Shown piece after piece: positions 14,967-37,741 of a DNA stretch of 64,000 nt; the stretch's first letter is position 1, and every line of letters begins with the position of its first letter. Under the pieces are notes generated by a model. That model did no database searches, was not told where the DNA came from, and saw only the letters and a list, made by a program, of their open reading frames with translations. The translations under genes and the position numbers were made by a program. Origin of the DNA: Eubacteriales bacterium. Its GTDB lineage: Bacteria; Bacillota; Clostridia; Oscillospirales; Acutalibacteraceae. The stretch is from assembly GCA_047834405.1 (NCBI GenBank), contig CP181263.1, positions 1,494,618-1,558,617 on the forward strand. The letters are read 5' to 3'.

Positions 14967-15009
14967 GCCTGTTTTTTCACGCCGGGCGGATATTTTGTAT
15001 GATACGCTA

Positions 15010-15058
15010 TTGACAAATTGCCCGGAAGCGGTTATAGTGTTCCTATAAAGAAACACTA
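15010..15058 (+). promoter_or_regulatory. sigA promoter with overlapping inverted repeat (candidate TrmB operator)
   Basis: TTGACA-N17-TATAGT, with TAGTGTT-N10-AACACTA overlapping the -10 and +1. Confidence 0.65.
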
Positions 15059-15071
15059 CTGGAGGGATTGC

Positions 15072-15767: not shown

Positions 15768-15771
15768 TTTT

Positions 15772-17061: not shown

Positions 17062-17087
17062 TGCATTCAGATTCTTTCCGAAATACA

Positions 17088-17115
17088 TTGACATTTTATT
17101 GGATTATGATAGAAT
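17088..17115 (+). promoter_or_regulatory. sigA promoter for riboswitch-ppa
   Basis: TTGACA-N16-TAGAAT with an extended TG. Confidence 0.7.
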
Positions 17116-17122
17116 AATTACT

Positions 17123-17209
17123 GGGAATGAAGTTCTCCCATAGCGAATGCTAAAATTGCTTTTTAAGCTGATGACTTCTGTGGCATACACAGCAGGCATC
17201 AGCTTTTTT
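17123..17209 (+). ncRNA. Fluoride (crcB) riboswitch with overlapping intrinsic terminator
   Basis: GGGAATGAAGTTCTCCC...GCTGATGACTTCTG matches the crcB aptamer layout (P1 GGGA/UCUCCC, pseudoknot GAAGU/ACUUC). GCTGATG/CATCAGC-TTTTTT forms the terminator. Confidence 0.88.
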
Positions 17210-17257
17210 GTTTACTCCGGGGAGCGGGGAAGAGGTGCGTCTTCGTTTGAAGGAGTT

Positions 17258-17821
17258 ATGAATAAAAATATTGGAGGGGTGTTTTTGAACATTTGGCACG
17301 ATATTTCCAAAGAAAGAATCCAGACAGACGATTTTTGCGCGGTCATTGAAATTCCAAAGGGCTGTAAAACCAAATATGAGCTTGATAAAAGTACGGGAAT
17401 GCTCTATATGGATCGAATTCTTTATACTTCCGCACATTATCCCGCAAATTATGGGTTTATTCCGCGCACGATAGCGGAAGACCACGATCCTCTGGATGTT
17501 CTTGTGCTCTGCACCGAGGATATACAGTCTCTTTCTCTTGTTCGGTGTCGCCCGATCGGTGTCATTGCCATGCTGGACAGCGGTTTTGTGGATGAGAAAA
17601 TTATTGCTGTTCCCTTTCATGACCCTACCTATAATGCCTATCACGACATAACGGAGCTGCCGAACCATGTGCTTGAAGAAATGTCGCACTTTTTCTCCGT
17701 GTACAAGCAGCTTGAAGGAAAAGCCACGGCTGTTGAGCATATCCGGAACGCGCAGGAAGCGAAAAAGATCATACGGGTATGCATTGAAAGATATGAAAAA
17801 GAGTATGGCGCAAAAGAATGA
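17258..17821 (+). CDS. ppa: Inorganic pyrophosphatase, family I
   Basis: Motifs VIEIPKG..TKYELDK, DRILY, YPANYGFIP and DHDPLDVLV. Alternative TTG start at 17285. Confidence 0.93.
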   Translation: MNKNIGGVFLNIWHDISKERIQTDDFCAVIEIPKGCKTKYELDKSTGMLYMDRILYTSAHYPANYGFIPRTIAEDHDPLDVLVLCTEDIQSLSLVRCRPIGVIAMLDSGFVDEKIIAVPFHDPTYNAYHDITELPNHVLEEMSHFFSVYKQLEGKATAVEHIRNAQEAKKIIRVCIERYEKEYGAKE

Positions 17822-17832
17822 ACGCAATAAAG

Positions 17833-17863
17833 AAACGCCTGCCGTTTTCGGCAGGCGTTTTTT
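17833..17863. terminator. Bidirectional terminator
   Basis: AAACGCCTGCCG/CGGCAGGCGTTT. Confidence 0.85.
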
Positions 17864-18905
17864 AATTTTGCTTCATTAGGCTGTTTAGCCGATCGGCAAT
17901 GTGAACGGATTCCTGTATCACGGCGGAAACCTCCTCCATTGCGCTCGACTGTTCCTGGGTCGTATGTAAAGTGATATTTGAGTTGTTTACGGTATCTCGG
18001 ATGGATTCCTGGATCTTCTTTGTCAGCTTCATGATATGTTCGGCCGTATTGTTTGAAGTTTGGGACAAGGTCTGAATTTCCTTTGCAACGACGTCGAATC
18101 CCTTTCCGGCCTCCCCGACGTGCGCCGATTCTATGGATGCGTTGATGCCCAGAATATTTGTATAGGAGGCAATTTGCGTAATGGATTTCAAAACATCATT
18201 AATTTCTTCCGTAATAGTCTCCACTTGCGAAATCTCGTTGTTCAGATCCTGCTGCCGTTCCGTAATATTCTGCGCGGAGGCTGCAAGCTCTTCCAGAGTG
18301 GACGAAATCTCGATGAATTTGCTTGCCAGAAGCTTAGCGAGATGTTCAAGCTCGATTTTTGCGTAGCCGTTTTTGGCGAGTGCATTGACGACAATAAACA
18401 AAACTTCCGCGGCGGCGCTGATGCTCTTCATATCCGTAACCTTGACCTTCTTCACCGCGTCGACCAACCCGTCCCCGCTGACATTGATTTCATTTGCAAC
18501 TTTGCGGTAATGTTCCTCCCGGGGCTTTTCCGAAAGTACCTGTCCGCCCAAAACGGTTCCGATCAGTTCGCCGTTAATGATGATCGGTGCGGCGAAATCA
18601 ATCAGACCCGCGTGGCATTGACCGACAAACGGCCTGCCGGAGCGGGCGGCCATTTCGCCCATGCGGTTGTGGGATTCAGCACAGCGGCGGTCACCAATTT
18701 GGGACTGGTGGACAAATCCGTCGCAAAATCTTGTATAGGAACTGGGATTTGTTACCGGGGTGCCGTTACGGTCTACGGTCACGCTGGCGCAATTCATTCC
18801 GATTGCAAAATTATCCTGGAATTTTTGCAACAAAGAGATGTCGATGATATCGCTTATTTCGAGCAGCTTCATGTCAAGCGTGCCGTCTTCGTTTGTTTTT
18901 ATCAT
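17862..18905 (-). CDS. Cytoplasmic chemoreceptor with PocR ligand-binding domain
   Basis: PocR-like N-terminus ([10 protein letters not shown]...[18 protein letters not shown]) plus MCP hairpin [28 protein letters not shown]. No TM helices. Confidence 0.85.
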
Positions 18906-23972: not shown

Positions 23973-25500
23973 TTAGTGAAGATTATTATAGGCCGCGGAG
24001 AGCAGCGTGTAATTTCGATCGAAGCTCAGTTCCCAAGCGGCCACGCCTTTCAGGCCGTGCGAAGCGGAATACCGTGCCTTCAAGGCAATTGAGGAAGCAT
24101 CGTCGTAGCTTATAAACGTACTGCTGCCGAACAGGGTGGGAACCTTTGCTGCGGACGAAAAACTCGACAGCAGTCCCTTTGACAGATAATTGGCAACAAT
24201 TGAATCATAACCGATTGCTTTTGCGTTTGTGAACCGGGAATAAAGCCCGTTGTTTTCTGCGCTTACTCCGTTATATATATAACCGTAGAACGGCAAGCCC
24301 ATGACAAGCTTCTTTGCGGGGAAGCCCGCGTTCTGCAGAAACCACGCTGATTTTATACTGCGGGGAGGAATCCGTTGGGGGATAAAGCGGTGCGTTCAGG
24401 TCAGTATAGGTATCCCACGGCCCGTGCATATCGTAAGTCATATCGACCGCGTAATCGACACAGCTTGCCAGCTGCGAAAGCTGTACATTGCGGGTATAAT
24501 TGTCCGAGGAACCGCCCGCAAAGGTCAGGTAATAGTATTTGCCGTCGGCGGCTGCCTGGGCGCTCAGCGCGGAGCGCAGGGCCCGCATAAGCAGGGTGAA
24601 ATTTGTTTTATCCTCAGCCCGGCCGGCAGCGCCGCCGCTCACCGGATATTCCCAATCAATATCCACTCCGTCGAAACCGTACTGCTTAATAAAGGCTGCA
24701 CAGCTTTTTGCAAAGGCTTTGCGCCTCGCATCGGTAAGGGAGGCATCCGAAAACCGGGCGGAACCGTTCCACCCGCCAATGGTGATAAGGGCTTTCAGAT
24801 GGGGGTATTTCTTTTTAAGAGCGGTGAGCTTTTTGAAATTGGCGTAGTCAACCGAAGGGTCATTCACCGCGATTTCCAAATTTGCGCCAATGTCTGCAAA
24901 AGCGTAGTGTACGACATTTATCATGGAAGCCTTGATTTTATCGGGCGTAAAGCCGCTGTGTGCCGACCAGTTCGCGTAATAACCCGCCGTTATTTTTGAC
25001 GGCAGCGCCGAAGCCGGCAATTTTGCCGCCGGTTTTGAGGAAACAGCGGATGACCTCGATGAGCTTGCGGTGCCGCTCGACGTTGGTGCGGAGGAACCGG
25101 ATGAGGAGGAAGAGCCGGCTGCAGAAGAACTGGGAAAGGAGCTCGACGGGCTGCTCACCGTGTGAATGTTTTCTAGGTATGCCCCGTAAACCCAGCCTGT
25201 TCCGTTGTTGAATGTAATTTTATGCCATCCTTGGTAGCTGTTTATTATGTATGCGGTGACTCCTTGCGGAAGGGAGCCGATAACCCGGGATGTTTCGGTA
25301 TAGGTTTCGTGAACATACAGCGGGTTTGCCGTAACGGTACCTGCGCGGATTGTTTCGCTCGTCTTGGTGGATGTTCCGCTTTTCACCGCTGCACCTTTGG
25401 CAAGCTGTGAACCGGAAGTGATACTTACCATCAACACAAAGATGAGTAAGGCGGAACAAGCCTTTTTCCATTTTAGCACTACTGAATACCTCTCTGTCAT
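23973..25500 (-). pseudogene. Secreted SH3b + Ser-rich linker + GH18 glycosyl hydrolase, frameshifted near 24335-24350
   Basis: ORF 24271-25521 has a signal peptide, SH3b (WHKITFNNGTGWVYGAYL) and GH18 motif FDGVDIDWEYP. The C-terminus LQNAGFPAKKLVMGLPFYG...GVAAWELSFD is in another frame (23973-24302). Confidence 0.82.
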
Positions 25501-26076
25501 CAGAATTCCATCTATTTCCAAAGCTTAGGTTGCTTGGCTTAGCGTTTTCCTAGTTATTATAAAAGATTTGCATCGCCGGAAACAATGAATAAATAATGGA
25601 AACCCGGAAGGCCAGGGAGTGAGGGTGTTGTATTGCCCTGTATGTTCCGATGTGGAGTTATGGTGGTTGATGCGGAGATTTTGCTATAAGATAGAGTTTT
25701 ATTCATAGGTTCATACGTTTTCTTCGTTAAAGGTTGGAGGTGAATCCGGCCTTTATTTTTTATAATTTGAAAACTACCGGATATACCGAAGATGATGCCG
25801 GAAGTTAAAGAGCTTTAGCGGTGAGAAAAATGAACAAATTGGCAGGGAGGGGGCAAGGGGTGAGCAGGATTGTTGCAAGCGAATGTTCATACGGCATGAT
25901 GAGTGAAGTGGTTATATTGCCAGCGGTTTTAACGGTACTCACAGCGACAGGAATATGACTGGGAAATTTGAATATTTTGAATTATAAAAAGAATAAGGCC
26001 GTCTGTTTCATCGAATTACATTCGGATTTCGTGTTATTTAACAAAAAATATTGTTTTTATTTATGCTTTATAAGTG

Positions 26077-26141
26077 TTGACTACAATGAAAATCAGAGTA
26101 TAATGAACTTGTAACTGGTTATGACGACATGATGTCATGAC
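26077..26141 (+). promoter_or_regulatory. sigA promoter and twin palindromes (candidate GntR operator)
   Basis: TTGACT-N16-TATAAT, then GTTATGAC-N8-GTCATGAC just upstream of the RBS. Confidence 0.65.
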
Positions 26142-26157
26142 GATAGGAGGAGCGCTT

Positions 26158-26886
26158 ATGGACCAAATTATGCTTCCAAAATATTATATTTTGAAGCAAA
26201 AGTTGATTGAAAAGATTGATCAGGAAGAGTTTAAAGCAAACGAGATGATTCCAAGCGAACGGGAATTAATCCAGCAGTACGATGTAAGCCGCATCACCGT
26301 TCGCAAAGCAATCGATGAGCTGGTGAATGAAGGATACCTGTACAAGGTGCAGGGCAAAGGAACGTTTGTGAAGTCGGATGCGTATAGCCAGGACTTAATT
26401 TCGATTACAAGCTGTACGCAGGATGTTATCAATCTGGGGATGACACCCAGCAGGAAAGTCATTTCGGCCTCTGTTCTTGAAGCGGATAACAAAAGATGCC
26501 GCAATTTGGAACTTGGAAAAAACGAAAAGGTATTCCGGCTGGAAAGGGTTTACTATGCGGACAGCGAACCCATCAACCATACCGTAACCTATCTTCCCTA
26601 TAAGCTGTTCCCCGGCATTGAGAAGTTCGATTTTTCAAAAGAATCCCTGTATAAAGTACTGGAAGAAAAGTATGATATTAAAATCACGAAAGCGAAGCGG
26701 TCTGTCGAAGCCATTCTGGCGAAAGACAAGATTGCCGAATATCTGGATGTGGAACCCGGAAAGCCCATTCTTCTGTTTGGCTGTATTACGTATGGCATTT
26801 CAAACGGAAAAGAAATCCCGATTGAAAATTTTAAATGCTGCTATCGCAGCGACAAATTTAAATTTTATATCAATCAGGTAAAGTGA
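26158..26886 (+). CDS. GntR (HutC/UTRA) transcriptional regulator
   Basis: Motifs IPSERELIQQYDVSRITVRKAIDELV and GKGTFV, plus a UTRA domain. Confidence 0.92.
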   Translation: MDQIMLPKYYILKQKLIEKIDQEEFKANEMIPSERELIQQYDVSRITVRKAIDELVNEGYLYKVQGKGTFVKSDAYSQDLISITSCTQDVINLGMTPSRKVISASVLEADNKRCRNLELGKNEKVFRLERVYYADSEPINHTVTYLPYKLFPGIEKFDFSKESLYKVLEEKYDIKITKAKRSVEAILAKDKIAEYLDVEPGKPILLFGCITYGISNGKEIPIENFKCCYRSDKFKFYINQVK

Positions 26887-26938
26887 GCCCCTTTCATATG
26901 TCCCCCTATTTTTTTATTTAAATAAAAGGAGAATCGCA

Positions 26939-28141
26939 ATGAAAAGAACATTGAAAAAGGTCTTATGTTTTGCAATGGCGGCAATAATGGGCCTGTCGGC
27001 TCTGGCCGGCTGCGGCAACAAAACGGCTGCTTCAAGCGGCGCGGCTTCCACTCCCGCAAAAAGCGACAAGAAAATCGCAATTGTCTGCGATGCCGCGGGA
27101 CAGAACGATAACGGCTACAATCAGGCCGCTGTAAACGGCGCAAAGGAAGCGGCGGAGAAGTTCGGCGTTCAGTACAAGGTAGTGGAACCCACTAACGGTG
27201 TTCCTGCAGCCCTGGAAGCGTTGGCGGATGACGGCTACGATGTAATCTTCAGCCTAGAATACGATTTCGACGCTTTAATCAAAGGCGTGGGCGGCGCAAA
27301 ACCGATCGCGGAAAGCTATCCGGATACCACATTTGTTGTATTCAACGATAATCCGAATGTGACTTCGAGCGGTGATGTAAAATACAAAAATGTTATTTCC
27401 GTTATGTTCGACGTTCACGAAGCCTCTTTCCTTGCAGGCAGCTTAAGCGTACTGGTCAATGAAAATGCCAAAACACTCTTCGCAGACGGATACAAGTTTA
27501 AGGACCCGGCCAGCGGCGGCCGTGCAATCGGCTTTATCGGCGGCACAAACTCCAACGGTATTACCGTATTCTCCTATGGCTATATCCAGGGCATCAACTA
27601 TATGGCCAAAGAACTCGGTGTAAAGTATGACTACTATGCAAAATACGATGCGGGCTTTACGGATTCCGCGCTCGGCAGCACAGTAGCGGGCACGTACTAT
27701 GATAAGGGCGCCAACATCGTTTACGGCGTGGCCGGCGGCGTCGGCGAAGGAATCACCTCCAAAGCAAAGGAAGTAGGCAGACTGGCAATTCAGGTCGATG
27801 CGAACAAAGACAATCAGCAGCCCGGTTACGTCCTTACAAGTGTTCTGAAAAATACCAACGTTCCGGTTGTGACGATCTGCACCGCGTTGGTTGAAAACAA
27901 ACTTTCTTCCATGGAGAACTTACAGTCTTATTCCCTGTCTTCGGGCGCCACCGGCATTACGGATTTGTCCGAAATCAGCAAGCATATCGCTTCCACCGAC
28001 GCGGCAAAAGCCAAGTGGGACGAAATCAAAGCAAAGATTGCCGAGATTGAAACCAAGATTGGTTCGGAGATCAAAGTTGTCAACGCACAGGCCGGCGAGA
28101 AGTTGGACGCGTCCGCCTGCCCGAATGTGAACATAAAATAA
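26939..28141 (+). CDS. BMP family ABC substrate-binding lipoprotein (nucleoside-type)
   Basis: Lipobox LAGC and motifs DNGYNQAA, HEASFLAG, GFIGG and AIQVDANK. Confidence 0.88.
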   Translation: MKRTLKKVLCFAMAAIMGLSALAGCGNKTAASSGAASTPAKSDKKIAIVCDAAGQNDNGYNQAAVNGAKEAAEKFGVQYKVVEPTNGVPAALEALADDGYDVIFSLEYDFDALIKGVGGAKPIAESYPDTTFVVFNDNPNVTSSGDVKYKNVISVMFDVHEASFLAGSLSVLVNENAKTLFADGYKFKDPASGGRAIGFIGGTNSNGITVFSYGYIQGINYMAKELGVKYDYYAKYDAGFTDSALGSTVAGTYYDKGANIVYGVAGGVGEGITSKAKEVGRLAIQVDANKDNQQPGYVLTSVLKNTNVPVVTICTALVENKLSSMENLQSYSLSSGATGITDLSEISKHIASTDAAKAKWDEIKAKIAEIETKIGSEIKVVNAQAGEKLDASACPNVNIK

Positions 28142-28170
28142 CGAAAACGATGCAAGGGGCGTAGATTGAA

Positions 28171-29715
28171 ATGAGCATCATTAAGACAATCGATCTAACC
28201 AAAAAATTCGGTGATTTTACTGCAAATGACAGGATTAACATTTCAGTAGAAAAACAGGAGATTAAATGTATAGTAGGCGAAAACGGCGCGGGGAAATCCA
28301 CTTTGATGAATATGCTTTATGGATTGCTACGTCCCACAAGCGGAAAAATATTGCTCCATGACAAAGAGACTGTGATCAATGGGCCAATGGACGCTATTGC
28401 ACACGGGTTGGGTATGGTGCACCAGCATTTTAAGCTGGTGCCCAGCCTTACCGTTTATGAAAACATCCTACTTGGTACGGAATTAAAAAAGTCTTCAAAA
28501 TCACCGATTATTGATCGAAAAAAGGAAATTGACGAAGTCACAAAGCTGATTGAAAAGTACAAGTTTGAATTAAATCCTACCGATAAAATCGAGGATATCT
28601 CCGTTGGCGGAAGGCAGCGGGTAGAAATCCTCAAGATGCTGTACCGCAACGTCGATATTCTGATCCTCGACGAACCGACCGCAGTGCTGACCCCGCAGGA
28701 AGTGGACGAGCTTTTTGTAAACCTGAAGGAACTGCGCGCACAGGGCAAGACGATCATTGTCATTACCCACAAGCTTCGTGAAGTGATGGAATTGAGCGAC
28801 AGCGTTACGGTTATCAAGCAGGGCAAGGTCGTAGGGAATGTTTTGACCAAGGACACTTCGGAAGAAGAACTGGCGCAAATGATGGTGGGCAGGGAAGTTG
28901 TTCTGACCGTACAGAATACGGCGGAAAACAAAGCATCGGAGGAAATTGCCTACCAGGTAGAGAATGTCTGCACGATTAATGACTACGGGAAGGAAGTGCT
29001 TCAGAATATTTCCTTCTGTGTGCATAAGGGCGAAATCCTTGGTGTGGCCGGTGTGGAAGGAAATGGCCAGTCGGAACTGGTGAAAGTACTGACAGGCCTC
29101 ATGAAAACGACCAAAGGTAAGGTTTCCATATATGGCAAGGACGTTACAGACAAGTGGCCGGACGAACTGCGGCAAAACGGCTTGGGGATTATTCCGGAGG
29201 ACCGGTATGCACAGGGCCTTTGTGGCACAATGAGTATTGCGGATAACTGTATCGCCGGTTATCACAACGCCCCGGATGTCTGCAAATTCGGTCTGCTGGA
29301 CAGAAAGAACATAAGCAGCAAGAGAGATCGTTTTATAAAGGATTTTGATATTCGTGTAGGCGATATCAACGGCAATGTTGGCCAGCTTTCCGGCGGAAAC
29401 GCGCAGAAAATTATTATTGCGAGAGAGTTTGAAAGCAATCCAAAGCTTTTAATAGCCTGCCAGCCAACGCGCGGCGTCGATATCGGCTCCATTGAATTTA
29501 TCCATAAACAGATTTTGAATTTCCGCAATAAAGGCAATGCGGTTCTGTTGATTTCTAGTGAGCTGTCGGAGGTTATGAGCCTGTCCGACCGGATTATCGT
29601 TATGTACAAAGGTAGGATTATCGGCGAGCTTTCTCCGAAAGAGGTCAGCAGATCTGAAATTGGCCTGCTGATGGCGGGAATTCAAAATAACAAGGCAAAA
29701 GGGGCATTTTTATGA
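28171..29715 (+). CDS. ABC transporter ATP-binding protein (two NBDs, nucleoside/sugar CUT2 type)
   Basis: Motifs GENGAGKST, MVHQHFKLV, LDEPTAVL, LSGGNAQK and QPTRGVDIG. Confidence 0.93.
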   Translation: MSIIKTIDLTKKFGDFTANDRINISVEKQEIKCIVGENGAGKSTLMNMLYGLLRPTSGKILLHDKETVINGPMDAIAHGLGMVHQHFKLVPSLTVYENILLGTELKKSSKSPIIDRKKEIDEVTKLIEKYKFELNPTDKIEDISVGGRQRVEILKMLYRNVDILILDEPTAVLTPQEVDELFVNLKELRAQGKTIIVITHKLREVMELSDSVTVIKQGKVVGNVLTKDTSEEELAQMMVGREVVLTVQNTAENKASEEIAYQVENVCTINDYGKEVLQNISFCVHKGEILGVAGVEGNGQSELVKVLTGLMKTTKGKVSIYGKDVTDKWPDELRQNGLGIIPEDRYAQGLCGTMSIADNCIAGYHNAPDVCKFGLLDRKNISSKRDRFIKDFDIRVGDINGNVGQLSGGNAQKIIIAREFESNPKLLIACQPTRGVDIGSIEFIHKQILNFRNKGNAVLLISSELSEVMSLSDRIIVMYKGRIIGELSPKEVSRSEIGLLMAGIQNNKAKGAFL

Positions 29716-30800
29716 AAAGACTGGATTTCGGGAAACGCCTTGTCAATTCGATTCTGCCTGTTTTGTTGGCGTTTGTGATTGGCGGAATCGTAATTTTGAT
29801 GATTGGCGAAAATCCCTTGGACACATACGGAATCCTGCTCGGTAAATCACTGTTTACCGTAAAAGGTTTTCTGAACACGCTGCATTATGCTTCGCCGCTT
29901 ATTCTGACCGGCCTTGCGATTGCTGTTACATTTAAAGCGAATATCTTCAACATGGGCGTGGAAGGCCAGCTGCTGCTTGGTGCGTTTTTCAGCGGTATTG
30001 TCGGTACCTCGCTTCCGGCCTCGCTGAATCCGGCAGCGGCCCAACTTATCTGCCTCGCGGTGGGCGTTATCTGCGGCGTCGTGTTCGCGCTGGTTCCGGC
30101 CATCCTCAAAGCGTACTGCCATGTAAATGAAATGGTTGTTACCCTGATGCTCAACTATGCGATGATCAAGGTGTTGGAATTCCTTGCAACTGGCGTGTTC
30201 CGCGACTACAGCTCCGGATACGTCTGCACGCCGATCATCAAGGAGAATGCAATGTTTCCCCGCTTTGGGAACTCCAAGCTTACGATGTTCTTTTTTATCG
30301 CGATTCTTATATTCATCGCTATGTATGTTGTCATTAACAAATCAAAGCTGGGTTATGAAATCACCGCCATTGGGAAAAATCCGGAATTCGCGGAAGCGAC
30401 CGGCATGAAAGTGCACAAGAAGATTATGATTATGATGGTTATCAGCGGCGCGCTTTCCGGCTTGGCCGGTGCGGGCTACATGATGAGCGAGCAGTTCAAA
30501 TACACCCTGAGCTTTTCCGGGAATCCGGGACTCGGCTGGGACGGTATGCTGATTGCCCTGCTGGGTGGCCATTCCCCCGTCGGTATTTTGGTTGCGGCAA
30601 TTTTCTATTCCGCTTTGAAGACCGGTGCGGACCATATCAATCTTTACTCGGCCGTTCCGAAAGAGATTGTTTCGGTTATTCAGGGTTTAATAATCCTGTT
30701 CCTTGCGGTGAAATTTGTAGATGAGCATACGAATATCCGGGAAAGGCTTTTCAGAAAAAAGGCCGGTAAACCCGAAACGGCCATAAGTGAGGAGGCGTAA
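29712..30800 (+). CDS. ABC transporter permease
   Basis: Motifs FNMGVEGQ, NEMVVTLMLNY and GWDGMLIALLG. Confidence 0.9.
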   Translation: MKRLDFGKRLVNSILPVLLAFVIGGIVILMIGENPLDTYGILLGKSLFTVKGFLNTLHYASPLILTGLAIAVTFKANIFNMGVEGQLLLGAFFSGIVGTSLPASLNPAAAQLICLAVGVICGVVFALVPAILKAYCHVNEMVVTLMLNYAMIKVLEFLATGVFRDYSSGYVCTPIIKENAMFPRFGNSKLTMFFFIAILIFIAMYVVINKSKLGYEITAIGKNPEFAEATGMKVHKKIMIMMVISGALSGLAGAGYMMSEQFKYTLSFSGNPGLGWDGMLIALLGGHSPVGILVAAIFYSALKTGADHINLYSAVPKEIVSVIQGLIILFLAVKFVDEHTNIRERLFRKKAGKPETAISEEA

Positions 30801-30801
30801 A

Positions 30802-31716
30802 ATGGACATCATAGGAAATATTTTATATGATACCATTTATCATAGTGCCCCTATTATTTTGTGCGTAATCGGCGGTATCTTTGCCTATAAGGCAAATGTG
30901 CTCAATATTGCGCTCGAAGGCATGATGCTCATCGGCGCGTTTGTTTCAACGCTTACCGCGTTTATGACGCAGAATATCGCGCTCGGAGTGCTGCTCGCCA
31001 TGCTGGCGGCGCTGGCCTTTGGAGTGGTTTTTTCCCTTATGGGGGTTACTTTCAAGGGGAATGTAATTATTATCGGCCTGGCAATCAACCTGCTTGCCTC
31101 GGCCATTGCAAAATTTGTTCTGGTTCGGATGAATACATCCAATATCACGCTGAGCTTTATGAATGTGGCTGATCTGAAGCTCCATATCCCGGTGGTCGAA
31201 AACATTCCGCTTGTGGGGAGCATTTTAAGCGGCCATCCGCTGATCACGTACATCAGCTTCCTCGGTATCTTTTTCATGTGGGTTTTGATGTATAAAACAC
31301 GGTTTGGCATCTATGTCCGTGTGGTCGGTGAAAATGAAGACGCGGCGAAGAGCATCGGACTGAAAACCGATTTTTATAAGTATGCCGCGATTTTAATCGG
31401 CGCTGTTTGCTGCGGGCTTGCGGGGGCAAACCTTTCTACCGAACGCCTAGGCCTTTTTACCAATGATATGACCGCCGGGCGGGGATTTATCGCAATTGCA
31501 GCAATCTACTGCGGCCAGGGGTCCCCAACTTTATCCGCCATATATGCCATTGTCTTCGGCCTGGCGCGCGCCCTCTCCGTCAATCTGAGCATCTATGCCG
31601 GTCCCGCGGCGGGACTGTTTGACGTTATCCCGTATGTCATTATGGTGTGTGTGCTTACGGTGGTATCTGTTTTGAAACATAAAAACAACAAGATAAGAGG
31701 TTTTAAGAATGAATGA
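30802..31716 (+). CDS. ABC transporter permease
   Basis: Motifs GVLNIALEG-like ANVLNIALEGMML and AGRGFIAIAA. Confidence 0.9.
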   Translation: MDIIGNILYDTIYHSAPIILCVIGGIFAYKANVLNIALEGMMLIGAFVSTLTAFMTQNIALGVLLAMLAALAFGVVFSLMGVTFKGNVIIIGLAINLLASAIAKFVLVRMNTSNITLSFMNVADLKLHIPVVENIPLVGSILSGHPLITYISFLGIFFMWVLMYKTRFGIYVRVVGENEDAAKSIGLKTDFYKYAAILIGAVCCGLAGANLSTERLGLFTNDMTAGRGFIAIAAIYCGQGSPTLSAIYAIVFGLARALSVNLSIYAGPAAGLFDVIPYVIMVCVLTVVSVLKHKNNKIRGFKNE

Positions 31717-32272
31717 GACAGCTCTTATTATTGTGGATATGGTAAAGGACTTTACGGATCCGGACGGTTTGGTGTTTTATCCGCAGAATCGCGAGATTCT
31801 GCCGCGGATTGCGCAGGTTTTGGAAAAATGCCGGGAAAAAGGGAAGCTGGTTATTTTCCTTCAGCACTGCAACCGTGCGGGCAAGCCGGATGAAAAGGCG
31901 GCGGCCATGCGCCCGAACTGTGTGGAAGGAACCAGCGGCATTGAAATCGACCCGATGCTGAAAGTGAATCCGGAGGATTATGTGATTCGAAAGCGCCGCT
32001 ACAGCGGTTTCTTCGGCACGGATCTTGACCTTGTTCTCCGTGAAAATCATATTAAAAATACCGTAATCGTCGGAACAAAAACCAACTGCTGCATTCGGGC
32101 CACCGTTACGGACGCGTTTTATCTGAATTACAATCCGATTGTCATCCGTGAATGTGTGGCGACTAATTCAGAAACAGTAAATGAAGTACACCTCAACGAT
32201 ATCCAGAAATATCTGGGTACGGTTGTGGACATGAAAACATTTTTTGAGAAATTGGATAACGGAGAATGGTAA
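31709..32272 (+). CDS. Isochorismatase-family cysteine hydrolase
   Basis: Catalytic triad present: IIVDM (Asp), IRKRRYSGF (Lys), GTKTNCC (Cys). Confidence 0.88.
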   Translation: MNETALIIVDMVKDFTDPDGLVFYPQNREILPRIAQVLEKCREKGKLVIFLQHCNRAGKPDEKAAAMRPNCVEGTSGIEIDPMLKVNPEDYVIRKRRYSGFFGTDLDLVLRENHIKNTVIVGTKTNCCIRATVTDAFYLNYNPIVIRECVATNSETVNEVHLNDIQKYLGTVVDMKTFFEKLDNGEW

Positions 32273-33228
32273 TGAAAAAATATGATGTAATTGTGAGCGG
32301 CTATGTGAGCATGGACCACATGCTGAAAATCAAAACGCCGGCGGCCGTTGGTTTTACCTCTCTCATCGAGAATAAGACGAATTCCAGAATTTATTACGGC
32401 GGCTGCTCCGTGAACATTGCATACGCACTATGCAAGCTTGGATTGAAGGCGATGCCGATTCTTCGCGTAGGCGGGGATTATGAGGAAATCGGATTTAAGA
32501 AATTCATGGAGGACGGCGGCGTTCCGCTGGACGCAACCTCCGTTATTGAAGAGGAAACAACGTCCGTTTGCTACCTGATTCAGGATAATAAAGGGCAGCA
32601 TATCACACTTTACTATACGGGCGCCATGGATGAGAAATATTCCTGTGAACTCAGCGACGACATATTTGAAAATACGAGCCTTGGAGTTATTACCGTCGCG
32701 GCACGTAAGGACAACGAGGAGTTTTACAGAAAGTGCCGCGCGCACAATGTGCCGATTGTTTTCGGTATGAAAGCGGACTTTGACGCCTTCCCGGAGCCGT
32801 TCCTCAAGGAACTGCTGCTGCACAGCAAGATTATCTTCACCAATGAATCGGAACGCGAAACGATTGAGAAGCTCCTTAACCTCAAATCGATTACAGATTT
32901 GTTTGCCCTTGGCGAGATGGAAATTATTGTGACAACATACGGGAAACAGGGAAGTACTTATTATCAGCGGAAGGCGGACGGCACGATCGACACCCAATGC
33001 ATTCCGATTTGTGACTGCACGAAGGTGGTGGACACCACCGGCTCCGGGGACGGTTATGTGGCGGGGTTCCTGTACGGCTACCTGCAAGGGCTGCCGATGG
33101 CGGATTGCTGCCGGATGGGCAGCACCCTCTCTTCCTTTATCATAGAAAAAGAAGGCTGCTGTACGAATGCGCCGACTGTGGAAGAGATCACAAGACGCTT
33201 TGAAAACTTTAAAAAATGCGCAATGTAA
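32272..33228 (+). CDS. PfkB family carbohydrate/nucleoside kinase
   Basis: Motifs GGCSVNIA, FTNESE and VDTTGSGDGY. Confidence 0.9.
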   Translation: MKKYDVIVSGYVSMDHMLKIKTPAAVGFTSLIENKTNSRIYYGGCSVNIAYALCKLGLKAMPILRVGGDYEEIGFKKFMEDGGVPLDATSVIEEETTSVCYLIQDNKGQHITLYYTGAMDEKYSCELSDDIFENTSLGVITVAARKDNEEFYRKCRAHNVPIVFGMKADFDAFPEPFLKELLLHSKIIFTNESERETIEKLLNLKSITDLFALGEMEIIVTTYGKQGSTYYQRKADGTIDTQCIPICDCTKVVDTTGSGDGYVAGFLYGYLQGLPMADCCRMGSTLSSFIIEKEGCCTNAPTVEEITRRFENFKKCAM

Positions 33229-33239
33229 GGAGACAAAAA

Positions 33240-33995
33240 ATGTCAACATTATATTTAGGAGCGGATACGTCAACGGTTGCCCCTTATGTTCTGTTTTCGG
33301 GCGACCCGTTCCGCGTGGAAGTTCTGAAAAAATATCTTGAAAACTCGCAGCATGTCGCCTTTAAACGGGAATTCAACACCTACACCGGTTCGTACAAGGG
33401 GGTGCCTGTTACGGTAACTTCTACGGGAATCGGCGCTCCCTCCGCGGCGATTGCCATGGAAGAAATGTATGAATCCGGCATGAAGGTGGCTGTCCGTATG
33501 GGTACGGTGATGGCCTTGCAGGATGATATGCTGGGGCATTTTATTATTCCGATTGCCGCCATGCGCCGCGAAAGCACCAGCAAGACCTATGTGGAAGAAA
33601 GCTATCCCGCGGTTGCCGATATCGAGCTGGTCAATATCATGAACCAGACGGTGACTTCTTTTGGAAAGCGTTACCTCAATGGCGTCAACTGCACTATGGA
33701 CGGCTTTTACAGCAAGATGCACGATTCTAAATTTTCCAAGGAATGCGGAATTGACATGCTCAAAACCTTTGAAGAATTAAAAAAGCTTCATGTAACCGGA
33801 ATCGATATGGAATCCTCGTGTATGCTGACGATCGGGCGGCTGATGGGTGTGAAAACCTGCATTGTTACCATGGCTACCGTGCTTGAGAATTTGAAGGAAG
33901 CGCTGGCCGGTCAGGACCGCGTTGATGCGGAAGACTTGCTGTGCCGCGTTGTTCTTGAGGGATTATACCGCTATCATACGCAAAAAGTGGAGTGA
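33240..33995 (+). CDS. Nucleoside phosphorylase (uridine phosphorylase/PNP family)
   Basis: Motifs GDPFR, REF, STGIGAPSAAI, RMGT, YPAVAD and DMES. Confidence 0.88.
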   Translation: MSTLYLGADTSTVAPYVLFSGDPFRVEVLKKYLENSQHVAFKREFNTYTGSYKGVPVTVTSTGIGAPSAAIAMEEMYESGMKVAVRMGTVMALQDDMLGHFIIPIAAMRRESTSKTYVEESYPAVADIELVNIMNQTVTSFGKRYLNGVNCTMDGFYSKMHDSKFSKECGIDMLKTFEELKKLHVTGIDMESSCMLTIGRLMGVKTCIVTMATVLENLKEALAGQDRVDAEDLLCRVVLEGLYRYHTQKVE

Positions 33996-34036
33996 ATATC
34001 CGGCTTCTGTTTTTATTAAGAAAGGAAGAGAATGTT

Positions 34037-34831
34037 ATGGACATCAGAGAAATTATTGCCTGTAGAAAAAGATTTGTCATCGGTATGGTTCACTGCCTTG
34101 CATTGCCCGGAACCCCCGGGTTTGCAGGCGACTGCGATAAAATCCTGAACCAGGCTGTTCAGGATGCCGTCACGCTTGAAAAAGCAGGCGTTGACGCGAT
34201 TATTGTTGAAAATATGGGGGACGACCCGTTTGCCGCCCTGTTGGACACTCCGCAGGTGGCCGCGCTTTCCGCCGCGACGGCTTTGGTAAAAAAAGCAGTG
34301 AAAATTCCGGTTGGCGTCGACGCGGCCTTTAACGACTGTGTTGCGTCTCTTTCCATCGCCAAAATTAACGGCTGTGACTTTGTGCGTATTCCGGTGTTTG
34401 TGGATACTGTTGAGTTTTACGGTGGAATCATTAACCCCTGCGCAAGACTCTGTATGCAGACCAGAAAAAATCTGGACGCGGAAAACATTATGATCCTTGC
34501 CGACGTTCAGGTAAAGCACACGAATATGGTGCTCCCGCAGGTGACGATTGAAGCGTCTGCAAAAGCCGCGGCAGGCTGCGGAGCGGAGGCCATTATCGTA
34601 ACCGGCTCCGCAATCGGTGTGGAAACCCCGCTTGAAATGATCCAACGCGTAAAGAAGGTTGTTAAGCTTCCGGTTATTGCGGGCAGCGGCGTCAATGCGC
34701 ACAATATCCGCGAACAGCTGGAGATTGCGGACGGCGCGGTGATCGGCAGCAGCCTGAAGAAAGACGGTGTGCTGACGAATCCGATTTCTTACGACCTTGT
34801 ACGCGAAGTGCTTGACGGACTTAACAAATAA
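34037..34831 (+). CDS. BtpA/SgcQ family TIM-barrel protein
   Basis: Motifs IGMVHC, IIVENMGD.PF, ADVQVKH, IVTG, GSGV and DGAVIGSSLKKDG. Confidence 0.88.
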   Translation: MDIREIIACRKRFVIGMVHCLALPGTPGFAGDCDKILNQAVQDAVTLEKAGVDAIIVENMGDDPFAALLDTPQVAALSAATALVKKAVKIPVGVDAAFNDCVASLSIAKINGCDFVRIPVFVDTVEFYGGIINPCARLCMQTRKNLDAENIMILADVQVKHTNMVLPQVTIEASAKAAAGCGAEAIIVTGSAIGVETPLEMIQRVKKVVKLPVIAGSGVNAHNIREQLEIADGAVIGSSLKKDGVLTNPISYDLVREVLDGLNK

Positions 34832-34849
34832 AAGGAGCAGTTAAAAACC

Positions 34850-35995
34850 ATGATGAGACCAATGAAATTAGCGGGCAGCGAGCTGATGTTCGGAGCGAAC
34901 TGCCTTGAATATATTAAATCCGTTCCCTGTAAAAAGGCGTTCATCGTTGTGGGCGGCAAGAGCATGGAGCGCAGCGGGATCCTGGCAAAAGTCGAAGGGT
35001 ATTTTCATGAAAATGGTGTTCAGACAACCGTATTCCAGGGTGTGGAACCGGACCCTTGCTTTTCAACCGTGAAGAGGGGCGCCGAACAAATGAAGGAATT
35101 CCAGCCGGATATGATCGTGGCTTTGGGCGGCGGTTCGGCAATGGACGCGGCGAAAACCATGTGGGTGTACTATGAACACCCGGAGCTGACCACGTTGGAG
35201 CAAGTCCTTACCGCGAATCCGTTCCCGAAGCTCCGTCGGAAAGCCCGCTTTATGTGCATCCCATCCACCAGCGGCACCGCAAGTGAGGTTTCCCGCTCGG
35301 TTGTTATTTCCGACGATGAAACAGGCATGAAGCACGGCTTGGGAAACATGGAAATGATGCCGGATATCGCAATCTGCGATCCGGAGGTTACCGCCACCAT
35401 GCCGCCCCATATTACGGCGGAAACCGGTATGGACGCATTGACCCATGCAATTGAAGCGCTGGTTTCCAATCGGGCGAATTACCTTTCCAACATCCTTGCG
35501 CGCGCGGCGGCAATCGATATTGTCAATACTCTGCCGAAAGCATATCAAGACGGCAAAGACATGGCGGCGCGTGAAACCATGCTGAATGCTTCCATGACGG
35601 CGGGCCTCGCGTTTACGAATGTATCCCTTGGCATCGTTCACTCCATGGCACACACACTGGGCGGATTCTTCCATGTTTCCCACGGCCTTGGCGATGCGAT
35701 CGTTCTGCCGTATATTATTGACTTCAACAGCGGAAATCCGGAAGCAAAAGCCGTGTATGACCACTTGGCTGCCGCTTTGGGTGGTACGGACCTTGCGGAG
35801 ATTGTCCGGAACCTGAATAAGAAAATAGGCATTCCCGCCTGTGTGAGAGAAGTTGTGAAGGACGAAGCCGCGTATACCTCCCAATTAGAGGAAATGGCCG
35901 AAACCGCCAAAGCGGACGGCTGTACCAAGACAAACCCGATCATCCCGACCATCCCGCAGTTCGTGGAACTGTTCAAGAAAGTGTATCATGGATAA
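34850..35995 (+). CDS. Iron-containing alcohol dehydrogenase
   Basis: Motifs ALGGGSAMD, IPSTSGTASE, GMDALTHAIE, VHSMAH and HG metal ligands. Confidence 0.92.
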   Translation: MMRPMKLAGSELMFGANCLEYIKSVPCKKAFIVVGGKSMERSGILAKVEGYFHENGVQTTVFQGVEPDPCFSTVKRGAEQMKEFQPDMIVALGGGSAMDAAKTMWVYYEHPELTTLEQVLTANPFPKLRRKARFMCIPSTSGTASEVSRSVVISDDETGMKHGLGNMEMMPDIAICDPEVTATMPPHITAETGMDALTHAIEALVSNRANYLSNILARAAAIDIVNTLPKAYQDGKDMAARETMLNASMTAGLAFTNVSLGIVHSMAHTLGGFFHVSHGLGDAIVLPYIIDFNSGNPEAKAVYDHLAAALGGTDLAEIVRNLNKKIGIPACVREVVKDEAAYTSQLEEMAETAKADGCTKTNPIIPTIPQFVELFKKVYHG

Positions 35996-36025
35996 AAAGA
36001 AATATACAGAAGGAATGAAAATGCT

Positions 36026-36742
36026 ATGAATTTAATCTGCTACCTATCAAATGGATATCCAACGATTGAGGACAGCATCGAGATGGCCAGGACCTACGTG
36101 GAAGCTGGCTGTGATATGATCGAAATTGACTTCCCTTCTCACAACCCTTTTTTGGAAAGCGAGTATATTTCCAACCGTATGGCAGAGGCATTAAAGAACT
36201 GCGATGATTTCGAGAAATACATGGAGGGCATGATCAAGGTTAAGAAGCTGCTTCCCGATACAAACTTTATCCTCATGGTGTATGAAAACACCGTTGAAGA
36301 AATCGGTGTGGAGAAATTTATCCGGTTCTGTCTTGACAATGATTACCGTGATATTATTCTTGTCGGTTTAAAAGATGAAACGATCAAGAATCAGTTTATT
36401 AAAGAAGGCATTCGTGTCAGTTGTTACGTACAGTTCCATTTACCGGAGCAGGAAGTAGAATATGCGCTGAAGTCCAACGGCTTTACCTATATGCAGGCGG
36501 TGCCGGCCCCGGGACAGGCAACCAAGGAACACCCGACTTTGAAATCCTGTATACAGTATCTGCGGGAACGCGGTTTGAAGAACCCGATTTACTGCGGCGT
36601 AGGAGTACATAATCCGAAGGATGCGGCAATGGTAAAGGCGGCGGGCGGCGACGGAGTGTTTGTAGGTAGCACCATTCTGAAACTGCATAACGATAAGCCG
36701 GCGCTCATGGCCAAAATCCGTGAGTTTAAGGCAGAATGTTGA
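36026..36742 (+). CDS. Tryptophan synthase alpha-like TIM-barrel, stand-alone and divergent
   Basis: Aligns by eye to TrpA: YL..GYP, GCDMIEIDFP (Glu49), CGVGV and DGVFVGS phosphate site. No trpB nearby. Confidence 0.78.
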   Translation: MNLICYLSNGYPTIEDSIEMARTYVEAGCDMIEIDFPSHNPFLESEYISNRMAEALKNCDDFEKYMEGMIKVKKLLPDTNFILMVYENTVEEIGVEKFIRFCLDNDYRDIILVGLKDETIKNQFIKEGIRVSCYVQFHLPEQEVEYALKSNGFTYMQAVPAPGQATKEHPTLKSCIQYLRERGLKNPIYCGVGVHNPKDAAMVKAAGGDGVFVGSTILKLHNDKPALMAKIREFKAEC

Positions 36743-36824
36743 TTTTAAGCGAATTCCTGCATGAAAGAGAGTCATCCATTTGCACCTATAACGCCTTTTA
36801 AAAACAATCAAAAAAGAGAAAGAA

Positions 36825-36867
36825 AGCCGTACCGGTATCCCTTGATGGATACCGGTACGGCTCTTTT
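36825..36867. terminator. Bidirectional terminator ending the catabolic operon and the fliDST transcript
   Basis: 16-bp perfect inverted repeat AGCCGTACCGGTATCC/GGATACCGGTACGGCT. Confidence 0.88.
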
Positions 36868-36879
36868 AGGCTTTACGAC

Positions 36880-37320
36880 CTATTTGATATTTCGGTAGAG
36901 AGTATAATCTTTTTCCTCTTTACGAAGCTGATTGATTTTTTCTTTCAGCTCCATACATTGTTTATTCAGCGTTTCCCGGGCCGCTTTATCCAATGCACCC
37001 GCTTTTTGAAGAATTTCCGCACAGTCGCGGGTAAGCTTCAAAATCTTCCGTTCTTCATCGCTGTTACATTGCTCATCTGAAAGATCCTGTCGGAATATAC
37101 GGGTCAAATGCTCCTGCTGTTCGGCGGAAAAATTCTTCGTCAGCTTTTGAATCAGGCTGTTGCATTTATTTACCCTTTCAATGTATATACCGCGTAAATC
37201 AAGGAGTTGATCCAGTTCAACCTCCGGTTCCATGCAGCGAACTTCAATCTGCTTTGTTAAATTCCATATCTTTGTAAGCAAAAGAACCTTTTGCTCAAGA
37301 CAGGCAATGATTTCATCCAT
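36880..37320 (-). CDS. Flagellar chaperone-like coiled-coil protein (FliT/FlgN-like)
   Basis: Helical protein directly after fliS, in the fliT position. Assignment is mostly by synteny. Confidence 0.55.
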   Translation of the reverse strand: MDEIIACLEQKVLLLTKIWNLTKQIEVRCMEPEVELDQLLDLRGIYIERVNKCNSLIQKLTKNFSAEQQEHLTRIFRQDLSDEQCNSDEERKILKLTRDCAEILQKAGALDKAARETLNKQCMELKEKINQLRKEEKDYTLYRNIK

Positions 37321-37363
37321 TCTCAAAAAGCCCTCCGGAAAGGTGAAATTTTACTTCCGCCTT

Positions 37364-37741
37364 TTATTTTTTCATATGGCAGAGTTTTTCGGCTTCCGTC
37401 CATGTATCCCTCATATTTTCCACTAAAGGAACCAGTTCATCCAAATAGGAGGATTCACGTTTAACCTCGGCTTTTATGATTTGCTGGTTGAAAAAATAGT
37501 ATAGATCATATAATTCCTTTGATATACTATAATTCCAATCCAATATGGAAGAAAGATAAGTAAAAATCTGTTTGCATTTATCGGTGCATTTCTCGGCGGT
37601 CTCATAATTTTTTTCCTTAAACATCATGGACCCATAATGCAGATTCTTTAATGCCTCGTTGAACAGCATTACAAGCTGTTCGCCTTTGGACATCGTATTA
37701 ATCGATTGTGTTTTATATTGCCTAATGGGATCAAATGGCAT
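37364..37741 (-). CDS. fliS: Flagellar export chaperone FliS
   Basis: Motifs QLVMLFNEAL, ELYDLYYFFNQQ and MRDTW. Confidence 0.9.
   Translation of the reverse strand: MPFDPIRQYKTQSINTMSKGEQLVMLFNEALKNLHYGSMMFKEKNYETAEKCTDKCKQIFTYLSSILDWNYSISKELYDLYYFFNQQIIKAEVKRESSYLDELVPLVENMRDTWTEAEKLCHMKK

Follow-up and report, generated by a model that had tools for sequence, protein, structure and literature searches.

The stretch of contig CP181263.1 analysed here (64,000 nucleotides from an Eubacteriales bacterium, referred to as the window) carries on its plus strand, between positions 26137 and 36742, eleven co-directional open reading frames (ORFs) which constitute a real, tightly packed operon. Our analysis suggests, with a probability of roughly 0.45, that this HutC-repressed operon serves the uptake and fermentation of a ribonucleoside, the sugar of which would be cut to a triose phosphate and a two-carbon alcohol. 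An initial annotation, made from the sequence alone, had described an eleven-gene operon for the uptake and breakdown of an unusual nucleoside or aryl-glycoside. The eleven co-directional genes and their reading as a single nucleoside unit of the catabolic type stand, but gene 1 codes for a HutC/GntR repressor that was not named there, so that ten genes are structural; the identity of the substrate, the target of the hydrolase, the roles of the two barrel proteins and the substrate of the alcohol dehydrogenase (ADH) are putative. That annotation overlooked the regulator with its operator, the sister cassettes without a phosphorylase and the altered active site of the TrpA-like protein.

In the scheme that we propose, an importer consisting of a BMP-type binding protein and an ATP-binding cassette (ABC) transporter would bring in the nucleoside, and a Udp-like phosphorylase would split it into the base and ribose-1-phosphate. 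An isochorismatase-type cysteine hydrolase would deamidate the base, either before or after phosphorolysis. A PfkB-family kinase would add a 5-phosphate to the nucleoside or to ribose-1-phosphate, leading to an intermediate of the ribose 1,5-bisphosphate type, which the BtpA protein would convert from the aldose-1-phosphate to the ketose form. The TrpA-like barrel would then cut the C-C bond three carbons away from the bound phosphate, giving a triose phosphate and glycolaldehyde (or its phosphate), and reduction of the two-carbon aldehyde by the iron-dependent ADH (Fe-ADH) would render the fermentation of the pentose redox-neutral.

The layout of the genes is that of one transcription unit. 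From gene 1 to gene 11 the ten junctions measure +52, +29, -4, -14, -8, -7, -13, -4, +18 and +30 nt, which means that six of them are overlaps of 4 to 14 nt and four are gaps of 18 to 52 nt. A TTGACT-16-TATAAT element in front of gene 1 is the best sigma-70-like match within positions 25500-37400, and comparison of upstream regions reveals the same promoter architecture ahead of related cassettes. Downstream of the last gene lies a hairpin of 18 pairs. It was flagged by the scan on the minus strand, and on the plus strand CTCTTTT follows it; the hairpin serves both convergent units. The single promoter, the short or overlapping junctions and the strong terminator of the initial annotation are thus borne out by an 11/12 promoter match, by gaps of no more than 52 nt and by this hairpin.

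The product of gene 1 combines a winged helix with a UTRA effector domain and scores under the cut-off of every NCBIfam equivalog model. Directly 3' of the -10 box, the upstream-region comparison brings out a candidate HutC-type operator, whose short length escaped the inverted-repeat tool. The motif TGGTTATGAC(C/G)A is found at the equivalent position in two related loci (L036 and L039), and perfect palindromes occupy the operator position in L031 (TGGTTATGACCA) and L032 (TGGTCATGACCA); L001 has TGGTTATGATGA. Either TGGTTATGACGA itself or one of the two palindromes is thus found ahead of related cassettes of Blautia and other Lachnospiraceae. We take TGGTTATGACGA and its palindromic relatives to represent the classical half-site pattern of HutC-family operators. 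Judging from these sequences, the repressor encoded by gene 1 most likely controls the operon to which it belongs, with the substrate or a phosphorylated intermediate as the inducer.

Conservation of the arrangement is rigid. A profile scan, using one genome per species, detects relatives of the TrpA-like gene in 174 genomes, and gene order was counted over 87 distinct related loci, most of the incomplete ones being cut by contig ends. The exact order of genes 1 to 11, with the regulator gene first, is present in 58 of the 87 loci, the regulator gene stands last in 5, and all six enzymes are found in 75. Because of this the arrangement is far beyond chance, and the co-occurrence of the genes elsewhere, on which the initial annotation had made its case depend, holds across several phyla. 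One locus (L001) is 97-99% identical to the operon in the window, whose source is Caproiciproducens galactitolivorans or a species very near to it. Carriers belong to the Bacillota, Actinomycetota, Spirochaetota and Chloroflexota, together with one gammaproteobacterium. Among the Bacillota they comprise Oscillospiraceae and, in the Lachnospiraceae, Coprococcus comes, Blautia, Roseburia, Faecalicatena, Robinsoniella and Lactonifactor; further carriers are Clostridium botulinum, Atopobiaceae, Treponema, Sphaerochaetaceae, Leptolinea/Anaerolineae and Vallitalea. The TrpA-like family is rare overall: when 401 genomes spread evenly over the phylum were searched with a profile, the gene came up in 1, namely the genome of the window itself. 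The picture is one of a self-contained cassette that appears to have been spread by horizontal transfer.

Protein families were assigned with Pfam and NCBIfam models. Function-specific NCBIfam models all score far below their cut-offs for the eleven products, the sole pass being TIGR00259, which describes the BtpA/SgcQ subfamily. Since these cut-offs are missed, none of the enzymes of the operon appears to be an orthologue of a characterised enzyme. Our full-text literature search returned nothing describing the cassette, an enzyme activity of BtpA or the TrpA-like clade, in line with the initial annotation, which recognised no characterised pathway in the combination. The catalytic motifs claimed for the hydrolase, the kinase, the phosphorylase and the ADH can all be read directly in the sequence.

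The host has the standard enzymes for nucleosides elsewhere. A deo cluster with DeoB, DeoD, a second BMP binding protein, DeoC and Pdp (C1:1607624-1617488) is located ~76 kb downstream of the operon, ~49 kb beyond the end of the window, and the genome also codes for two split transketolases. Given the presence of DeoB, DeoD, DeoC, Pdp and transketolase, the cassette is a separate route and not the standard nucleoside route, which supports the initial view that more is at work than a standard nucleoside handled in the standard way. A role of the cassette as the replacement of a missing pentose route was considered and is rejected on account of the same genes.

The evidence for a nucleoside as the substrate comes mainly from transport. 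The binding protein has BMP/PnrA relatives in the PDB, including 7x0r, 4pev, BmpA, BmpD and PnrA, and keeps the nucleoside-contact motifs D..G.ND..YN, F.YGY, GG.G.G, VD..KD and TS..K. Alignment to BmpA and to the deo-linked BMP protein of the host shows Tyr in place of the first Phe, with F.YGY, VD and TS..K retained. The aromatic platform of BMP proteins and the ribose-binding Asp and Lys are therefore in place, as expected for a member of the BMP/PnrA family, and this conservation of ribose and base contacts points to a nucleoside ligand. The nearest NCBIfam model of the ABC ATPase, a putative B6 ABC ATPase, scores under its cut-off. The best evidence for a true nucleoside is provided by the gammaproteobacterium Anaerobiospirillum, where the ABC importer has given way to a nucleoside:H+ symporter of the NupG type (449 bits) and the six enzymes are still together (L068). 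These two lines uphold the nucleoside-like substrate that had been proposed at first, while the aryl-glycoside named as the other option finds no support. The substrate is probably a specific ribonucleoside with an amide-bearing or otherwise unusual base.

The phosphorylase was compared by alignment of 79 orthologues with E. coli Udp and DeoD. Equivalents of the phosphate-binding residues Arg30, Arg48, Arg91 and Thr94 and of the ribose-binding residues Met197 and Glu198 are invariant in all of them, which places the protein in the nucleoside phosphorylase-I superfamily. As these residues are all kept, it can be regarded as a genuine phosphorylase acting on a sugar with 2'- and 3'-OH groups. 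Each of the 79 orthologues has Tyr at the position of His8, the residue that makes the 5'-OH contact in E. coli Udp. In the base pocket, the position of Gln166 is Lys in the window (Gln in most orthologues and Cys in some), that of Arg168 is His, and that of Arg223 is Glu, located at the site of the purine-protonating Asp204 of DeoD. Because the base-contact positions are changed, the base would not simply be uracil. A classical uridine phosphorylase (Udp) is rejected, as TIGR01718 gives 161 bits against a cut-off of 280.3 and the uracil-binding Gln166, Arg168 and Arg223 are replaced by Lys, His and Glu.

The hydrolase had been called an amidohydrolase. Our family assignment places it instead in the isochorismatase family of cysteine hydrolases and not in the metal-dependent amidohydrolase superfamily. 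Its motifs comprise Asp10, a Lys and the Cys of GTKTNCC; this triad, conserved in 75 orthologues, is shared with PncA, CSHase, RutB, biuret hydrolase and similar amidases. Relatives in the PDB are 3hb7, the CSHase-related protein 3eef, PncA (1im5) and RutB. The metal ligands of PncA are not conserved, LQHCN and RPNC being present against the DxH and H of PncA. A nicotinamidase/pyrazinamidase (PncA) is rejected for this reason, together with a PRK11609 score of 41.6 bits against a cut-off of 174.

The kinase carries the PfkB motifs GG and DTTGSGD, and its best match in the PDB is 2c49, the broad nucleoside kinase MJ0406 (1.3e-35). It misses the models for nucleoside kinase, ribose-1-phosphate kinase and ribokinase about equally (NF041164 72 of 450, NF053626 70 of 330 and TIGR02152 79 of 300 bits). 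The last of these scores rejects it as a classical ribokinase.

Membership of the first barrel protein in the BtpA/SgcQ family is clear from both family models, while it misses NF045918, the equivalog model of the photosystem I protein BtpA (155 bits against 400). Its true start may be Met16, at position 34037. An AlphaFold2 (AF2) model with a predicted local distance difference test (pLDDT) score of 93 is an eight-stranded barrel. The fold search reveals no close solved relative, and the nearest folds (GGGPS, HisF, HPS, IGPS, NanE and TrpF) reach a template-modelling (TM) score of only ~0.6, which corresponds to the superfamily level. According to the model the protein has the fold of the ribulose-phosphate-binding superfamily. 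A D.QVKH motif is conserved in the BtpA subfamily of the cassette and absent from canonical BtpA proteins. Two canonical paralogues are encoded in the same genome outside the window (C1:1653000-1671000, L120, and 472000-490000, L121). Paralogue A is part of an frl-like operon that also encodes an amino-acid permease, an FrlC-like barrel, an SIS deglycase-like protein, an FrlD-like kinase, GntR regulators and an HAD phosphatase; paralogue B adjoins an FGGY kinase, an HAD phosphatase and a divergent GntR/UTRA regulator. The barrel fold and the location of the paralogues beside sugar kinases and HAD phosphatases suggest that the cassette protein converts a sugar phosphate. Phosphorylated sugars would accordingly be the substrates of BtpA proteins, with isomerase or epimerase activity the simplest assumption.

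The second barrel protein passes only the broad PF00290 model and stays under the cut-off of TIGR00262 (87.2 against 102.35 bits). Its AF2 model (pLDDT 96) lacks the N-terminal helix of TrpA. The equivalent of the catalytic Glu49 of TrpA (Glu33) is invariant, the position of Asp60 is Glu44 (Glu in most members and Asp in a few), and the phosphate site GVGV...VGS of strands beta7 and beta8 is kept. Newly invariant are Asp35, Glu87, Ser132, Cys133, Gln157, Tyr189 and Cys190. The pocket appears to be polar and acid-rich, which would fit a sugar and perhaps a metal. Family models and the neighbouring ORFs reveal no trpB beside the gene, a tblastn search of the same genome gives no match to a TrpF, and the genome of a near-identical strain (G402) has no match to phosphoribosylanthranilate isomerase (PRAI, trpF) or indole-3-glycerol-phosphate synthase (IGPS, trpC). 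These results, with the missed TIGR00262 cut-off, exclude the tryptophan synthase alpha subunit and a role in tryptophan synthesis.

The Fe-ADH has the metal motifs GMDALTH and HSMAH..H that define its family. Its best PDB match is the ADH domain of AdhE (3zdr, 3e-86), FucO follows with 1e-49 and DhaT is also near, and it remains under the equivalog cut-offs for lactaldehyde reductase and glycolaldehyde reductase. We propose that it is an aldehyde reductase for a small aldehyde. In a metagenomic protein of 630 amino acids (P0132), an Fe-ADH (residues 12-379) and a TrpA-like domain (388-628) are naturally fused, and by this Rosetta-stone link the products of genes 10 and 11 would catalyse consecutive steps. 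Together with the fusion, the retention of the Glu49 equivalent, of an acidic side chain where TrpA has Asp60 and of the phosphate site suggests that the TrpA-like barrel is a lyase feeding the ADH. The TrpA-like gene of 26 related loci, though not that of the window, is followed by a co-directional glyoxalase/VOC gene (e.g. at 10795-11280 of L022), and this fits a reactive small aldehyde as product.

Variant cassettes define which parts are constant. More distant TrpA-like proteins (25-43% identity) are located in related operons; the sister loci were scanned with a closer alignment subset, the very distant set being too diverse. Type 2 cassettes (L124, L127-L129, L131+L136 and L134) contain a BMP/ABC importer with altered contact residues, 1-4 isochorismatase-type hydrolases, a PfkB kinase, a BtpA of the QVKH type, 2-4 tandem TrpA-like genes, often an MFS transporter, an Fe-ADH and aldo-keto reductases with 4Fe-4S domains, and among their genes there is neither a phosphorylase nor a glycosidase. 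Units rich in TrpA-like genes are L126, L129 and L130. In type 1b (L139), two PfkB kinases are found with the phosphorylase, two TrpA-like genes and a histidine phosphatase; the second PfkB and the phosphatase fit bisphosphate intermediates. After this variant cassette, at 14947-18415 of the same locus, follow a histidine-phosphatase/GNAT fusion, a GntR regulator and a macro-domain protein of 530 amino acids, and this single case hints at a link to ADP-ribose or NAD-derived compounds. One Lachnospiraceae genome has a type 2 cassette directly upstream of a type 1 cassette (L127/L046), and one Oscillospiraceae genome contains four BtpA genes of the cassette type. Because the phosphorylase-free sister cassettes keep them, the constant core is hydrolase, kinase, BtpA and TrpA-like protein, and the phosphorylase is an add-on of type 1.

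Several points weigh against the scheme proposed above. A ribulose-1-phosphate route starting from ribose-1-phosphate would not strictly need the kinase, and if the kinase does act, the two-carbon product would be phosphoglycolaldehyde, yet the operon has no phosphatase. DeoB and transketolase could process ribose-1-phosphate, so that a C3+C2 split would have no evident advantage with an ordinary sugar in an ordinary linkage. The existence of sister cassettes without a phosphorylase implies that the core chemistry is independent of phosphorolysis. The chemistry of TrpA frees the phosphorylated fragment as the aldehyde and not the unphosphorylated one. In addition, the conserved Lys of the QVKH-type BtpA could form a Schiff base, and the isomerase and lyase roles may be distributed over the two barrels the other way round.

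The main alternative, which we regard as rather doubtful, is a course resembling the tryptophan pathway. Here the riboside, or a ring-opened or deamidated form of it with an N-H at the glycosidic nitrogen, would be phosphorylated at O5', BtpA would carry out an Amadori-type ring opening as TrpF does, and the TrpA-like barrel would cleave the C2'-C3' bond with the nitrogen still attached, as TrpA does on indole-glycerol phosphate. The products would be glyceraldehyde-3-phosphate and an N-(2-oxoethyl) aglycone (or glycolaldehyde and the amine), reduced by the ADH, and the phosphorylase would be a side branch. It is in favour of such a course that Glu44 occupies the site of TrpA Asp60, by which the indole N-H is held, that no other acidic residue is invariant across the whole superfamily, and that the cassette's own TrpA-like clade keeps the phosphate site and the Glu49 equivalent; Gln replaces Glu33 in several sister clades, however. 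The type 2 cassettes do without phosphorylase or glycosidase and still keep the kinase, BtpA, 2-4 TrpA-like genes and 1-4 hydrolases, and their MFS transporter could export the leftover aglycone. On the other hand, every type 1 cassette has a phosphorylase with a full phosphate site, which would strip off the base first, and the ring nitrogen of true nucleosides cannot form an open Schiff base. The BtpA paralogue in the frl-like Amadori operon agrees with an Amadori step. So does one locus (L007, 10762-12240) that lacks the BtpA of the cassette and has genes for a TrpF and a canonical BtpA downstream of the TrpA-like gene, but this TrpF may be a housekeeping enzyme: it is the only trpF of its genome, whose trp operon (L135) has a DAHP-synthase-like ORF at the trpF position. 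As strong support for an Amadori step, this TrpF has accordingly been downgraded to ambiguous.

Improbable is a route for deoxynucleosides or 5'-modified nucleosides, analogous to the deo operon or to the dihydroxyacetone phosphate (DHAP) shunt, in which phosphorolysis, isomerisation and aldol cleavage would lead to triose phosphate and (substituted) acetaldehyde, reduced to (substituted) ethanol. For the ADH, the closest match is the domain of AdhE that reduces acetaldehyde, the sequence of phosphorylase, isomerase, aldolase and reductase follows the logic of the DHAP shunt, and at the position of His8, the 5'-OH contact of E. coli Udp, all orthologues have Tyr. However, the equivalents of Met197 and Glu198 that bind the 2'- and 3'-OH are invariant, the kinase resembles 5'-OH nucleoside and ribose kinases and could do nothing with 5'-deoxy sugars, DeoC and Pdp are already encoded by the host, and the hydrolase would be left with no role.

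Quite improbable, too, is a salvage function, e.g. for nicotinamide riboside or another carboxamide riboside, where a nicotinamidase-like hydrolase, a riboside kinase and the phosphorylase would recover the base or nucleotide and the barrels and the ADH would only dispose of the sugar. It could explain a hydrolase with PncA-like relatives and an RPNCVEGTSG motif resembling the nicotinamidase signature, as well as the acidic residues Asp197 and Glu224 in the base pocket of the phosphorylase; yet the PncA metal ligands are lost and PRK11609 reaches just 42 bits against 174. The macro-domain gene next to one variant cassette could be taken in the same sense, but it is a single case, positioned after the regulator. 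Moreover, the HutC repressor and the ADH are features typically found in catabolic operons, and the transporter replacing the ABC system in one genome is of the NupG and not of the PnuC type. That the genes are chance neighbours, or two unrelated units made up of importer and enzyme block, can be dismissed: promoter-like matches do occur inside the operon, but they are weak and at the rate seen in shuffles, and against such a division stand the six overlapping junctions (including that of second permease and hydrolase), the identical order in loci from several phyla and the enzyme block that travels with a different nucleoside transporter in L068.

Table 1. Features of the operon, in window coordinates.
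Feature	Position	Strand	Support
Promoter-like site TTGACT-16-TATAAT	26077-26104	+	11/12; best sigma-70-like match in its region
Candidate HutC-type operator TGGTTATGACGA	26116-26127	+	directly 3' of the -10 box; upstream-region comparison
HutC/GntR-family repressor, winged helix and UTRA effector domain	26137-26886	+	PF00392 66 bits; PF07702 120 bits
BMP/PnrA-family lipoprotein, substrate-binding protein of ABC importer	26939-28141	+	PF02608 108 bits
ABC ATPase, two nucleotide-binding domains	28171-29715	+	PF00005 twice, 173 bits
ABC permease 1	29712-30800	+	PF02653 146 bits
ABC permease 2	30787-31716	+	PF02653 115 bits
Isochorismatase-family cysteine hydrolase, amidase type	31709-32272	+	PF00857 143 bits
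PfkB-family kinase, nearest to archaeal nucleoside kinase MJ0406	32266-33228	+	PF00294 139 bits
Uridine-phosphorylase-like nucleoside phosphorylase, remodelled base pocket	33216-33995	+	PF01048 114 bits
BtpA/SgcQ-family barrel, QVKH subfamily, proposed sugar-phosphate isomerase	33992-34831	+	PF03437 220.6 bits (cut-off 30); TIGR00259 208.5 bits (cut-off 153.4)
Iron-dependent alcohol dehydrogenase, proposed aldehyde reductase	34850-35995	+	PF00465 154 bits; PF25137 158 bits
TrpA-like barrel, proposed C-C lyase	36026-36742	+	PF00290 90 bits
Hairpin, 18 pairs, G+C-rich (terminator)	36823-36864	.	between last gene and convergent flagellar genes

On both sides the operon is bordered by genes of the opposite strand. 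Upstream, a GH18 chitinase/endo-beta-N-acetylglucosaminidase-like gene with an N-terminal SH3 domain (24271-25521, minus strand) is unrelated to the operon and separated from it by ~0.6 kb of non-coding sequence with a terminator-like hairpin at 25728-25755. The convergent flagellar genes past the shared terminator are fliT-like, fliS and fliD. FliD (37778-40525, minus strand) is unusually long with 915 amino acids and has a large insert between its N- and C-terminal domains (matches at 26-127 and 630-902).

Beyond the single operon, it is conceivable, though we consider it rather unlikely, that the QVKH-type BtpA and the TrpA-like protein form a previously unrecognised enzyme module of the whole cassette superfamily, performing TrpA-type chemistry on non-indole substrates. 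Such a module would cut N-linked ribosyl or ribityl chains of phosphorylated compounds; a triose phosphate would be one product, and a formylmethyl aglycone or glycolaldehyde, subsequently reduced, the other. The cassettes are of type 1, to which the operon of the window belongs and which includes a phosphorylase, of type 1b, which has two each of the kinase and the TrpA-like gene, and of types 2 and 3, which have no glycosidase. In the last two there are as many as four paralogues each of the TrpA-like protein and of the hydrolase, together with MFS transporters and Fe-S aldo-keto reductases. If the module exists, types 2 and 3 could be the route by which 10-formylmethyl- and 10-hydroxyethyl-flavin arise from riboflavin in intestinal bacteria.

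The BtpA/SgcQ family (PF03437), which occurs from E. coli to cyanobacteria and archaea, is without an assigned enzymatic function, and the TrpA-like clade comprises ~70 clusters at 50% identity (E <= 1e-30), the universal annotation of which as tryptophan synthase alpha is almost certainly wrong. Solving the cassette would provide functions for two barrel families and correct a widespread misannotation. It would also show a further way in which carbon from nucleosides or RNA passes through anaerobic communities, and might bring to light a novel type of C-C lyase reaction as well as an origin of small alcohols, e.g. ethylene glycol, in the gut. The common human-gut genera Coprococcus, Blautia, Roseburia and Faecalicatena carry it, as do oral and vaginal Atopobiaceae, Clostridium botulinum, spirochaetes and Chloroflexota from digesters. 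With its rigid gene order and self-contained design, the cassette is directly testable by reconstitution in vitro.

Comparison with known systems reveals that each shares some part of the cassette. The frl operon for fructoselysine (FrlA-D, FrlR) also combines a HutC-type repressor with a PfkB kinase; unlike it, the cassette has no SIS-type deglycase and no amino-acid permease, and it has a nucleoside-type binding protein and phosphorylase. A deo operon (DeoA/DeoD, DeoB, DeoC) with a BMP importer has uptake and phosphorolysis in common with the cassette and likewise ends in a triose phosphate and a C2 aldehyde. However, neither a phosphopentomutase nor a deoxyribose-phosphate aldolase (DERA) is present in the cassette, and the host has its separate deo set. 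With TrpA and stand-alone indole-3-glycerol-phosphate lyases (TrpA, BX1), the TrpA-like protein shares the fold, the beta7/beta8 phosphate site and the equivalent of Glu49; it differs from them in having no N-terminal helix and no TrpB partner, in Glu for Asp60, in the new Asp35 and Glu87, in a pocket that is polar and not hydrophobic and in its TIGR00262 score, which lies under the cut-off.

The pathway logic is shared by the DHAP shunt, or salvage of 5-deoxyribose, carried out by MtnP/MtnN-MtnK, MtnA and Ald2 or by DrdK, DrdI and DrdA. It proceeds by phosphorolysis or phosphorylation, conversion of the aldose-1-phosphate to the ketose-1-phosphate, aldol cleavage to DHAP and a small aldehyde, and reduction of the aldehyde, a course similar to our proposed scheme. 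The cassette differs from it in the families of isomerase and aldolase, in the added hydrolase and in a sugar that appears to have free 2'-, 3'- and probably 5'-OH groups.

The same logic of steps is found in the haloarchaeal non-carboxylating pentose bisphosphate pathway, where a nucleoside phosphorylase, a PfkB-family kinase, an isomerase, a C-C lyase and an aldehyde reductase of the Fe-ADH family act in turn and the lyase yields a triose phosphate and a C2 aldehyde (Sato et al. 2022, PMC9700705). For the two central steps the haloarchaea employ an e2b2/IF-2B isomerase and a class II aldolase, and the cassette would use BtpA and the TrpA-like barrel instead: none of its eleven products matches the families of the e2b2/IF-2B isomerase, RuBisCO, the class II ribulose-1-phosphate aldolase or the ribulose 1,5-bisphosphate (RuBP) phosphatase. 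The cassette thus dispenses with a RuBP phosphatase and possesses in addition a cysteine hydrolase, a dedicated importer and its own repressor.

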